A stretch of 10,854 nt of DNA from a virus: UHGV virus genome UHGV-0113369. The stretch is one strand, 5' to 3'. The notes beneath the pieces were generated by a model. It saw only the letters and a program-made list of their open reading frames with translations. It had not been told where the DNA came from and made no database searches. Each line of letters starts with the position of its first letter. Position 1 is the stretch's first letter. The position numbers and the translations under genes are program-made. Below, piece after piece: positions 5,835 to 7,782 of the stretch.

Positions 5835-5931
5835 ATGCCCTCCAAACTAAGTTTTATTAGATGTTAATTATCAATCTATCTTAGGTCAATAAAAACTAAG
5901 ATTACTTAGTAATTAAAGAAATGGTGCTCCT
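5835..5931. promoter_or_regulatory. Immunity-region OR: divergent pR/pRM promoters with AACTAAG-type operator palindromes
   Basis: AT-rich 97-bp spacer between divergent cro-like and cI genes. 11-bp palindrome AAACTAAGTTT at 5844-5854 and 16-bp palindrome ACTAAGATTACTTAGT at 5895-5910. Candidate pR on the minus strand: -35 TTGACC (5889-5884), 17-bp spacer, -10 TAACAT (5866-5861). Confidence 0.55.
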
Positions 5932-6558
5932 ATGGAAACGGTTGGTCAGCGTATAAAAGCTCTGAGAAGAGTTACCAGAACGTCCCAGAAAGAATTGGGT
6001 AAATTTTGTGGAGTAAGTGACGTTGCTGTGGGGTACTGGGAGAAAGACATCAATGTCCCTGGTGGGGAAGCACTTTCAAAATTAGCGAAGTTCTTCAATA
6101 CGTCAATAGATTACATTCTTTATGGTGCGGAGTTTGAAGGCAAACTCGTCACAAACATGCGCAGAGTTCCTGTAATCTCGTGGGTTCAGGCTGGGCAGTT
6201 TACTGAGTGCAGGACAGCAGAAGTGTTTAGTGAAGTAGACAAGTGGGTAGATACATCATTAAAGATTGGTGATAACTCATTTGCATTGGAGGTTAAAGGC
6301 GACTCCATGACTAACCCTAACGGCCTCCCAACAATACCAGAAGGCGCAACAGTGATTGTAGATCCTGATGCAGAGCCCCGGCATGGAAAAATAGTCATCG
6401 CTAGACTTGATGGAACAAACGAAGCCACAGTAAAAAAATTAGTTATCGATGGCCCTCAAAAGTTTTTAGTGCCATTAAATCCCCGGTACCCCAACATCCC
6501 GATCAATGGTAATTGCCTCATCATTGGTGTAGTCAAAGGAGTTCAATACGAACTCTAG
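5932..6558 (+). CDS. cI: CI-type prophage repressor (HTH_XRE N-terminal domain + S24 LexA-like autopeptidase domain)
   Basis: 208-aa ORF. N-terminal HTH (QKELGKFCGVSDVAVGYWEKD). C-terminal S24 peptidase motifs (EVKGDSMTNP with catalytic Ser; KKL with catalytic Lys). Divergent from the cro-like gene. Weak or absent SD, consistent with a near-leaderless pRM transcript as in lambda. Confidence 0.9.
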   Translation: METVGQRIKALRRVTRTSQKELGKFCGVSDVAVGYWEKDINVPGGEALSKLAKFFNTSIDYILYGAEFEGKLVTNMRRVPVISWVQAGQFTECRTAEVFSEVDKWVDTSLKIGDNSFALEVKGDSMTNPNGLPTIPEGATVIVDPDAEPRHGKIVIARLDGTNEATVKKLVIDGPQKFLVPLNPRYPNIPINGNCLIIGVVKGVQYEL

Positions 6559-6576: not shown

Positions 6577-6613
6577 AAAACACCGAACTAAGAAAAGTTT
6601 GGTGTTTTCTCTT
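6577..6613 (+). terminator. Putative intrinsic terminator downstream of cI
   Basis: Stem AAAACACCGAAC (6577-6588) pairs with GTTTGGTGTTTT (6597-6608) including one G-U; 8-nt loop; followed by TTTTCTCTT. Stem is A/U-rich so strength is uncertain; it may instead be part of the OL operator region. Confidence 0.4.
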
Positions 6614-6640
6614 GCCATTAAAACTAAGTTAAGTTAGATT
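6612..6640 (+). promoter_or_regulatory. Candidate pL-like promoter overlapping an OL-like operator
   Basis: -35 TTGCCA (6612-6617), 17-bp spacer, -10 TAGATT (6635-6640). The spacer and -10 contain AAACTAAGTTAAGTTAG, the same AACTAAG motif seen in the cI-cro intergenic operators. Confidence 0.35.
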
Positions 6641-6742
6641 TTATATCAAAGATAACGAACAGGTAGGACGCCCACGAAGTAGCCGCCGGTGGCGTATGAA
6701 TGACCGGATGATTCGTTAAATACTATGTGTAAGAGAGCGCAA

Positions 6743-6946
6743 ATGAACCGTTATTTCACATGCTCGTTTTGTGGCGCAAACGAGCTGCAGGCAAAAAAAA
6801 TCATCGCCAAAGGCGGAAAAGATGAAGTTGCTATCTGCTCTGAGTGCGTAGTCTTGTGTGTCGGGGCATTAATCGATATCAGCACAACTATTCAGTTCAC
6901 ACCAAATGAGAATGCGCCTTTAGATGCGCGGAAATCTGGAGGTTAA
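6743..6946 (+). CDS. Free-standing ClpX-type C4 zinc-finger (ClpX N-terminal ZBD-like) small protein
   Basis: 67 aa from ATG 6743 (RBS AAGAGAG 5 nt upstream). CSFCG...KIIAKGG...ICSECVVLC aligns by eye with the E. coli ClpX N-terminal zinc-binding domain ([30 protein letters not shown]). No AAA+ ATPase domain follows. Confidence 0.6.
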   Translation: MNRYFTCSFCGANELQAKKIIAKGGKDEVAICSECVVLCVGALIDISTTIQFTPNENAPLDARKSGG

Positions 6947-6954
6947 AGAACAAA

Positions 6955-7230
6955 ATGAAAGTCCAGATTTTAAACAATAGTGGTGAAGTCGTTTGGTCAT
7001 ACGACATAGCCGCTACTGTAGATCAGAGCGGCGATAGCTGGACCAATGGGAAACATCAGATTATGGCTGGAGTTGTGTTCTCTTTACGCCGTGCTTTAGA
7101 ACAGGCTGAAGTCTTTCCATCAGACCCTGAATGGAAATGGCCTTTTTCTATTTGTCCAAATTCGGAGAGTACATTTCAGAAAATTGGTCAGAAAGTCGCA
7201 CTCGAAGAGCATCAGCCAACTGTTTCCTGA
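6955..7230 (+). CDS. Hypothetical protein (91 aa)
   Basis: ORF with GGAGG 11 nt upstream of ATG 6955. No recognisable motif. The last ~27 codons overlap the convergent 81-aa gene, so the true 3' end is uncertain. Confidence 0.4.
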   Translation: MKVQILNNSGEVVWSYDIAATVDQSGDSWTNGKHQIMAGVVFSLRRALEQAEVFPSDPEWKWPFSICPNSESTFQKIGQKVALEEHQPTVS

Positions 7231-7393
7231 TTTTTTCAGGTAACTCGTCGGCATCGCAGAAACAACAACGCTCGATCATGTTGAAAGCTGATTCGTAGAA
7301 CTGTTTTTGCTGAGTGTCGCTGAGACAGGAAAAGAGCGACGTTACGATGATTTTATTAATTGCATTATCAAGTTCTTTTTCATCAAAAGTCAT
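7148..7393 (-). CDS. Hypothetical protein (81 aa), convergent to neighbours
   Basis: ORF with good RBS (AAAAGGAAAA, 7-8 nt spacing) before ATG 7393. Acidic/helical-looking sequence with a CCFC motif. Opposite orientation to the surrounding plus-strand genes. Confidence 0.5.
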   Translation of the reverse strand: MTFDEKELDNAINKIIVTSLFSCLSDTQQKQFYESAFNMIERCCFCDADELPEKIRKQLADALRVRLSDQFSEMYSPNLDK

Positions 7394-7646
7394 TTGATTT
7401 TCCTTTTATGTATACGGGCTTAAAAGGATACCACCGAGCCTGAAGTGGTGAAAAGACAGGCACATAACAGCTAAGTATTTTCAACCAGAGAGAATCCTTA
7501 GCGTTGTGGTGAATGCGGCTCAGCGCACGCGGGTTAAGGTTGAGGCTGACAGTCGACCTTCTGTGGATACCCACCCGCCTGGTGTGCAACCTTCGCCAGG
7601 CACCGGGAGGCACCCGGCACCACAACTTTATGCTGTGTGTAGTCTT

Positions 7647-7693
7647 GGCGGTACCAGCTTGTACCCTTGCTTCCGGCTGGTACCGTCCTTTTT
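7647..7693 (+). terminator. Intrinsic terminator-like hairpin in the leader upstream of the yfdP-like gene
   Basis: Perfect 10-bp stem CGGTACCAGC (7649-7658) / GCTGGTACCG (7676-7685), extendable by G-C and G-U pairs, loop ~15 nt, followed 3 nt later by TTTTT (7689-7693). Confidence 0.5.
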
Positions 7694-7782
7694 ACAAAAC
7701 AGAGAAGAGCATCACCGGACGACGGGCTCATAACCCAATCCATCCGGGCGGCAGTCACCGCAGGTGTTCTTCTCTGTTTTGT
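7694..7782. repeat. 20-bp imperfect inverted repeat pair flanking 49 bp
   Basis: ACAAAACAGAGAAGAGCATC (7694-7713) is the reverse complement of GGTGTTCTTCTCTGTTTTGT (7763-7782) apart from two G-T positions. The enclosed segment is GC-rich. Confidence 0.55.

Follow-up and report, generated by a model that had tools for sequence, protein, structure and literature searches.

Two convergent small genes with overlapping 3' ends in the immunity region of an SfV/e14-type prophage

Can a short stretch of phage DNA encode conserved proteins on both strands, and what might such an arrangement do next to a repressor gene? The question is raised by the virus genome UHGV-0113369, of which we analysed a stretch of 10,854 nucleotides (the window). 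The whole window is the immunity region of a lambdoid prophage of the SfV/e14/CPS-53 type; the region shares 99% identity with E. coli chromosomal prophages and 97–99% with Shigella phage SfV and the coliphages SKA5 and vB_EcoM-720R4. A preliminary description of this DNA had pointed out a plus-strand open reading frame (ORF) of 91 amino acids (aa), here ORF91, and a minus-strand ORF of 81 aa, here ORF81, sharing 83 nucleotides (nt) at their 3' ends. The ORF list agrees with this, and the ribosome-binding sites that had been called plausible could be located as Shine-Dalgarno (SD) sequences: GGAGG 12 nt 5' of the ATG of ORF91 and AAGGA 8 nt 5' of that of ORF81, both conserved between lineages. 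The window is rich in spurious antisense ORFs of similar size, so that ORF length alone is not beyond chance. Comparative sequence evidence nevertheless identifies both ORFs as real genes, with frame-specific purifying selection in the part that each has to itself. The interpretation that we favour, and hold at about even confidence, is that ORF91 would be the first gene of the early lytic programme and ORF81, which faces it, a cargo gene embedded antisense and gated at translation, the two being expressed in a mutually exclusive way.

Selection was assessed in a gap-free alignment of five lineages at 57–64% protein identity, in which the ratio of non-synonymous to synonymous differences (pN/pS) and the stop codons were determined in six frames. 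Outside the overlap, the frame of the gene itself has the lowest pN/pS and is free of stops in both ORFs (Table 1), and the differences concentrate at its own third codon position (268 of 530 in ORF91, 251 of 448 in ORF81). Inside the overlap, codon-position periodicity is absent (74/91/73) and pN is about 0.25–0.27 in both frames.

Relatives of ORF91 were found at 57–68% identity by homology search, and relatives of ORF81 at 56–62% identity in Salmonella, Klebsiella and Yersinia by profile search. When the DNA around the divergent ORF91 homologues was inspected, an intact ORF81 homologue was present on the opposite strand every time; reciprocally, every ORF81 homologue had an intact ORF91 homologue alongside. 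The convergent overlap persists, its relative phase unchanged, in 12 lineages (Escherichia, Salmonella, Klebsiella, Yersinia and metagenomes), and its length (74–281 nt) is set by where the plus-strand frame meets a stop. Distant members at 26–46% identity (lineages L023, L024, L030 and L032) retain the pair, and ORF81 is kept by 12 of the 13 lineages of the ORF91 family, down to 26–44% protein identity. The preliminary description had allowed for only one of the ORFs being conserved at the protein level in related prophages; both are.

The overlap amounts to 83 of the 276 nt of ORF91 and 83 of the 246 nt of ORF81. It codes for ...IGQKVALEE... on the plus strand and ...ALRVRLSDQFSE... on the minus strand, codon position 3 of either gene lying opposite position 2 of the other. 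A block of 17 nt within it, AGTCGCnCTCGAAGAGC, is nearly invariant; on either strand it encodes a conserved C-terminal helix (...VALEE in ORF91 and ...ALRERL in ORF81). Because the coding regions overlap, complete mRNAs of the two genes are necessarily complementary. A terminator scan revealed no plus-strand terminator between ORF91 and the small RNA (sRNA) element downstream, and no minus-strand terminator within ORF91.

The pair is carried by 425 of 5,426 complete E. coli genomes and by the viable phages SfV, SKA5 and vB_EcoM-720R4. SfV orf33 corresponds to ORF91 at 96.7% identity, with 7 N-terminal codons added in the SfV annotation; ORF81 is intact in SfV and 98.8% identical, yet unannotated, the record listing orf33 only. 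The NCBI Prokaryotic Genome Annotation Pipeline (PGAP) calls ORF91 in some genomes, ORF81 in others and both in none. Since pipelines annotate one gene at a time, a conserved gene has been missed in about 8% of complete E. coli genomes and in the reference phage SfV.

Table 1. Features of the ORF91/ORF81 locus, and contents of the corresponding slot in related prophages. Coordinates are those of the window unless a lineage is named.
Feature	Coordinates	Strand	Description
Repressor gene, cI-like, LexA family	5932..6558	+	helix-turn-helix (HTH) and S24 peptidase; Pfam Peptidase_S24 95.9 bits, HTH_3 37 bits
Rho-independent terminator of repressor transcript	6577..6608	+	inverted repeat, 13-nt arms, 92% complementary, then T-run
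Putative oL/pL region	6586..6644	+	two operator-like repeats (ACTAAG-N4-nTTAGn) and promoter-like site
Conserved structured leader RNA	6654..6717	+	about 60 nt; predicted 5' end of early-left transcript, 3' of putative pL
ClpX-type C4 zinc-finger (ZBD-like) gene	6725..6946	+	optional, predicted first pL gene; Pfam zf-C4_ClpX (PF06689), 41.6 bits (cut-off 27)
ORF91 (SfV orf33, phrog_3195)	6955..7230	+	91 aa, small acidic; predicted first or second early-left gene
ORF91-only part	6955-7147	+	own frame pN/pS 0.34, 0 stops; other five frames 0.46-1.82, 10-25 stops
Dual-coding overlap	7148..7230	both	83 nt; 3' ends of ORF91 and ORF81
ORF81 (phrog_3311)	7148..7393	-	81 aa, small acidic, three-helix; antisense, inside putative early-left operon
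ORF81-only part	7231-7393	-	own frame pN/pS 0.28, 0 stops; other five frames 0.34-1.54, 9-39 stops
S3 hairpin, ORF81 5' leader	7401..7428	-	anti-SD UCCUUUUA (7428-7421) pairs with SD UAAAAGGA (7408-7401)
S1/S2 interleaved helices	7430..7461	-	5' of S3
STnc100-like prophage sRNA	7473..7696	+	Rfam RF02076, 43.4 bits, E 8.7e-8
Slot content: ORF91/ORF81			3' overlap 83 nt
Slot content: ymfJ/ymfI (e14)			3' overlap 63 nt
Slot content: 68-aa gene (+)/ECs1072-family gene (-)	L025 1407-2019		3' overlap 29 nt
Slot content: lone 171-aa gene	L026 1387-1902	-	no overlap
Slot content: ORF91-family gene/unrelated 92-aa gene (-)	L033		3' overlap 55 nt

The position of ORF91 suggests by which transcript it would be expressed. 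Between the repressor gene and ORF91 lie the terminator of the repressor transcript, a putative early-left operator and promoter (oL/pL) and a conserved leader. A hairpin and T-run equivalent to the terminator are found 3' of the upstream gene in SfV, L007, L009, L012 and L013. The operator-like repeats of the oL/pL region are shared with the cro-cI intergenic region (5844–5916), as direct and inverted repeat families, and a promoter scan located the promoter-like site TTGCCA-17-TAGATT at 6612–6640; SfV, L009 and L013 have near-consensus promoters at the corresponding position. One operator-like repeat, ACTAAGAAAAGTTTGG (6586–6603), falls within the cI terminator hairpin, in its loop and 3' arm, so repressor binding and termination of the cI transcript would use the same DNA.

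The leader that follows is predicted to form three helices, for which RNAalifold returned 14 pairs, 7 of them with compensatory changes. It is present in a single copy in the window, is conserved 5' of the ORF91 homologues in SfV, L007, L009 and L013, and occurs in phages of Klebsiella, Pantoea and Pectobacterium (ZF40). In Yersinia L017 it comes after the gene pair instead of before it, and in L012 it was not evident in the comparison of upstream regions. The leader has no Rfam match and no boxA-like CGCTCTTA; it sits where a nut/put antitermination site would, in a group of phages that lack an N-like gene.

The order of terminator, near-consensus promoter, leader and ORF91 homologue recurs in SfV, L007, L009 and L013, which have different repressors. 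In the lineages compared, the ORF91 homologue is always the first gene past the repressor block, and homologues down to 41–46% identity keep their position directly 3' of the repressor and pL. Since the cI terminator is immediately followed by the putative oL/pL and the leader, early-left (lytic) expression would start with the zinc-finger gene, in carriers that have it, and ORF91; we infer that they belong to the pL operon and stand outside the lysogenic cI transcript. ORF91 differs from lambda N, the first pL gene of that phage, in being an acidic protein with N-terminus MKVQILNNSGEVVW that is devoid of an arginine-rich RNA-binding motif, and in its leader having no boxA. Its placement behind pL agrees with the induction of its positional analogue ymfJ in e14: ymfJ RNA and protein rise late in the SOS response, like intE, with ymfI only weakly induced (PMC11002266).

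On the minus strand, homology between lineages ends about 70 nt 5' of the ORF81 ATG, and two structures are predicted upstream of the gene. The S3 hairpin, in which UCCUUnn pairs with nnAAGGA of the ribosome-binding site, is predicted in nine of nine ORF81 lineages, and position 6 of its stem is filled by four different Watson–Crick pairs (U-A, C-G, G-C and A-U). RNAalifold applied to the whole leader gave S1 alone, owing to a misalignment of the variable loop by MAFFT, and the sequences were therefore folded one by one. The SfV record marks the S3 spot as a putative plus-strand terminator, and no U-run follows it in the window.

S1 and S2 are formed by GCCUG (7461–7457) with CAGGC (7442–7438) and by ACCACU (7449–7444) with GGUGGU (7435–7430), respectively. 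Across the alignment of these helices 95% of the cells are paired, and three pairs have double-sided (compensatory) changes, against none in 500 shuffles; the G-U pairs are valid on the minus strand only. The block may be a pseudoknot-like (H-type) leader, a 5' untranslated region element, an operator/promoter spacer or a recombination joint. It precedes at least five unrelated minus-strand genes (in the window, L016, L025–L027 and L033), which are, besides ORF81, e14 ymfI, an ECs1072-family gene, a 171-aa gene and a 92-aa gene. Two readings of a hairpin at 7430–7449 were rejected: as a minus-strand terminator, its U-tract is not conserved, and as the spacer of an extended -10 promoter, it would have as its -10 hexamer the anti-SD arm of the covarying S3 hairpin. 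A check by eye revealed no LexA box 5' of ORF81.

The pL leader on one side and the S1/S2 block on the other delimit a slot, the contents of which vary in related prophages (Table 1). L025 and L026 are E. coli prophages that have the repressor of the window yet other slot contents; their alternative genes have no Pfam match above the gathering score and no PADLOC match, and searches of Pfam, NCBIfam and PADLOC assigned no family to the alternative cargo genes. In L033 the breakpoint falls within the former ORF81 region. These comparisons identify ORF81 as one among several alternative antisense cargo genes, not strictly bound to ORF91. Its placement is that of a moron or sieB-like gene, on the opposite strand inside the putative early operon and in a slot with alternative cargo, which bears out the earlier idea that the minus-strand gene opposes the surrounding operon as a moron.

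Combining these elements, the favoured mechanism would run as follows. In a lysogen pL would be repressed, and the zinc-finger gene (where present) and ORF91 would be silent, to be made first upon induction or infection. The minus strand would be transcribed in the lysogen, the level of ORF81 being gated by its occluded ribosome-binding site. Upon firing of pL, the read-through needed for the downstream yfdP-yfdQ-yfdR-int genes would collide with ORF81 transcription, and the read-through RNA would form a duplex with the ORF81 mRNA, shutting off ORF81 while ORF91 is produced. That both genes are real, and conserved as a pair with this layout and operon context, is shown; where the promoters lie, when each gene is expressed and that the two interfere is what we infer here from layout and analogues.

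Convergent genes with necessarily overlapping transcripts are also the hallmark of the excludons of Listeria, E. coli and S. aureus, for which transcriptional interference and cleavage of duplex RNA are predicted to make expression mutually exclusive (PMC12288877). At the sequence level, the 83-nt coding overlap gives the pair the overlapping transcripts of a convergent excludon. The ymfI-ymfJ pair of e14 and the sieB-ydaF pair of Rac are among the core convergent excludons of K-12, present in at least 50% of 58 RNA-seq sets (PMC12288877). The mutual antisense interference proposed in the preliminary description is plausible in the light of these listed analogues; for the present locus it keeps the status of a prediction. 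Classical excludons overlap in untranslated regions, whereas the pair described here, as read from the genomes, overlaps by 74–281 nt of coding sequence with both frames conserved.

Several observations weigh against this mechanism. The overlap evolves as fast as its flanks, and this flank-like rate, together with the variable overlap length, is compatible with a tolerated overlap of loosely constrained C-termini. The support taken from e14 is by analogy, the proteins being unrelated. The ORF91-family gene of L033 faces an unrelated gene, so ORF81 is replaceable and the overlap needs no regulatory purpose. TGgTATCCT is the best sigma-70-like site 5' of ORF81 in 10 of 11 lineages, with a score not above that of shuffled sequence, and its candidate -10 hexamer is the anti-SD arm of S3, which conflicts with S3 lying in the mRNA. 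Finally, sequestration of the ORF81 ribosome-binding site means that translation may be poor or only conditional.

The same observations feed the view that the two genes are independent neighbours, an early lytic ORF91 and an unrelated moron, ORF81, the overlap of which is a by-product of a compact genome without any coupling. We consider this unlikely, but it has to be taken seriously: in L033 the ORF91-family gene faces a different minus-strand gene of 92 aa, in sister prophages the slot is occupied by other pairs or by a minus-strand gene on its own, and the C-termini differ in length, giving an overlap that varies and is not more conserved than the flanks. Against it, ORF81 has stayed with ORF91 in all but one of the 13 lineages, down to low protein identity, and the VALEE and ALRERL helices share their nearly invariant block. 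Any full-length transcripts would, moreover, be complementary regardless of purpose.

A functional partnership is a doubtful alternative, based on analogy. ORF81 would be a lysogen-expressed effector, for instance an exclusion or regulatory factor, and ORF91 an early-lytic antidote or modulator, in some cases with a ClpX-type zinc finger as helper or fusion partner, that lets the phage's own lytic cycle escape or dismantle the effector. The models for such a system are the self-immunity arrangements sieB/esc of P22 and BstA/aba. The long co-inheritance of the pair and the position of ORF91 as first gene from pL would fit, as would the properties of the proteins: both are small, acidic (net charge of about -4 and -5 by residue count) and soluble, with no hydrophobic segment, like many phage inhibitor proteins. 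The physical overlap, however, forces co-inheritance in any case, L033 has ORF91 without ORF81, and neither protein matches a defence family. The AlphaFold2 (AF2) model of ORF91 is of no use in this regard, its predicted local distance difference test (pLDDT) score of 45 making it unreliable and too poor for a structure search.

Other searches gave little more on what the proteins may be. Full-length profile matches to PHROG families without functional annotation were obtained for both (phrog_3195 for ORF91, E 4.4e-63; phrog_3311 for ORF81, E 3.1e-55). Pfam, NCBIfam and PADLOC gave no match above threshold for either ORF, and sequence and profile searches of the PDB nothing credible, in agreement with the earlier remark that neither has a recognisable motif. 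The ORF91 family is small, with 18 representatives among 1.84 billion. For ORF81, AF2 predicted three amphipathic helices with a pLDDT of 74.5, and Foldseek with this model against PDB and BFVD returned chance matches only (E of 1.2 or higher). A conserved CCxC metal site considered for ORF81 was rejected, one cysteine being left in L030 and L032.

The partnership also draws on the additional N-terminal domains that ORF91 gains. In L023, a 1.5-kb metagenomic contig (SRR33454317), a single ORF at 101–661 has a ClpX-type zinc finger (30.3 bits) fused in frame to the ORF91 domain (42% identity, E 7e-25); it starts with GTG behind the SD sequence GGAGAG and is convergent with an ORF81 homologue. 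This fusion, seen in one short metagenomic contig only, connects the zinc finger with ORF91 rather than with ORF81, and hints at a functional link between the zinc finger and ORF91, not at a three-gene system. A second N-terminal domain of about 80 aa, starting MEFKDLP and without Pfam match, is fused to the ORF91 domain in L024 (4001–4579) and P0065; in L033 (2229–2836) the two domains are split into two ORFs overlapping by ATGA.

The zinc-finger gene itself is present in 83 of the 425 E. coli genomes with the pair, and thus missing from about 80% of them. It is absent from the SfV, O157, Salmonella, Klebsiella and Yersinia lineages, and from the L028 prophage, which has an identical repressor. 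In a group of E. coli prophages (H6–H20) that are otherwise 98% identical, a 1-nt deletion in an A8 homopolymer of the gene (6793–6800) has shifted its reading frame; this could be phase variation or simple decay. Literature searches on phage-encoded ClpX zinc-finger proteins and on the function of SfV orf33 yielded nothing. Of the accessory system of three genes that had been suggested, the L023 fusion speaks for a link between the zinc finger and ORF91; with the zinc-finger gene absent from most carriers of the pair, the idea as a whole is only weakly supported.

That the locus is a toxin-antitoxin or abortive-infection module, with or without the zinc-finger gene, was also suggested in the preliminary description, and we judge this improbable. 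The convergent, overlapping layout and the obligatory antisense relation would suit it, the ORF81 leader sequesters its SD sequence as the leaders of type I toxin mRNAs do, and the locus adjoins the repressor, where prophage defence genes are often located. In type I systems, however, the antisense partner is a small RNA, whereas here it is a conserved protein-coding mRNA under purifying selection; ORF81 is not a short hydrophobic peptide, and it has no family matches. Type II partners are co-directional in one autoregulated operon, whereas these genes converge on opposite strands, with ORF91 in the putative pL operon, and neither matches a known toxin or antitoxin family. More generally, there is no toxin-antitoxin or defence profile match, neither protein is hydrophobic or nuclease-like, the genes are not co-transcribed, and the zinc-finger gene is lacking in most carriers. 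ORF91, as a pL gene, should be repressed in the lysogen, so the pair would not be co-expressed like a toxin and its antitoxin; ORF91 and ORF81 being expected in opposite states, there would be no steady supply of antitoxin. On this evidence the suggestion is unsupported.

Finally, translation of a single ORF, with the other a shadow held open by the real gene opposite, is hardly credible: annotation pipelines never call the two together and some lineages have plus-strand read-through ORFs of 122–162 aa across ORF81 that are clearly shadow extensions, but the non-overlapping two-thirds of each ORF have their own third-position periodicity and low pN/pS, and contain no stop in any of the 12 lineages, with both SD sequences conserved.

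Known loci come close to the arrangement proposed for ORF81, e14 among them. The e14 locus has the same elements, a LexA-like repressor, a small plus-strand gene, ymfJ, a small minus-strand gene, ymfI, overlapping it at the 3' end, and a ymfH/STnc100-like element, and the sequence 5' of ymfI matches that of ORF81 from the S2 helix outward. The proteins differ: BLASTP detected no similarity of ORF91 to ymfJ or of ORF81 to ymfI, and their PHROGs are separate. The ymfI hairpin, moreover, leaves its SD sequence uncovered. In Rac, lambda and P22, sieB is a separately transcribed gene that opposes pL just past the first small pL genes; it is a superinfection-exclusion gene expressed in the lysogen. 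SieB is a membrane protein of about 160–190 aa, whereas ORF81 is an 81-aa acidic, soluble, helical protein without similarity to it.

The genes around the locus fit its assignment to an immunity region. The repressor gene is labelled 'LexA family protein' by PGAP, and P22-Cro-like, ymfL/CII-like and O-like genes, yfdP, yfdQ (DUF2303) and yfdR were also found. The structured element noticed earlier downstream of the pair is an STnc100-like sRNA, its match covering the full-length model at a score below the gathering score of 47; at the gathering threshold Rfam has no match anywhere in the window, and a permissive search was needed. The element ends in a DicF-like terminator hairpin (7649–7685) with a T-run, is 94–99% conserved in about 1,950 of the 5,426 E. 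coli genomes, and is labelled ymfH or 'frameshifted hypothetical protein' by PGAP. A Phage_ASH/pRha gene of the related prophage L024 lies beside strong matches to isrK (68 bits) and C4 antisense RNA (78 bits), at 2124–2322 on the minus strand; this locus is an antirepressor control module of the P1/P7 type, set in an early-right region that is Rac-like.

The architecture of the locus is already known, and the pair is an uncharacterised new example of it. Bacterial cases of antiparallel coding genes that overlap with both frames conserved are few and frequently contested, and the pair is a clean one, validated by sequence comparison. Several unrelated antisense genes have the structured leader in common, which suggests that lysogeny cargo is controlled by one type of device. 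Taken further, and speculatively, an antisense platform composed of the pseudoknot-like leader and the anti-SD hairpin, at the head of the early-left operon of SfV/e14/Rac-type prophages, might drive swappable lysogeny cargo that is switched off by pL read-through, with ORF81 and ORF91 as an effector and its early antidote interacting through C-terminal helices that opposite strands of one DNA segment encode, and with the ClpX-type zinc finger optional or fused; we attach a low probability to this combination as a whole. With pL placed right after the repressor terminator, lytic expression in a large prophage group without an N-like antiterminator would begin with the zinc-finger gene and ORF91, making these two genes candidates for host-takeover or switch functions.

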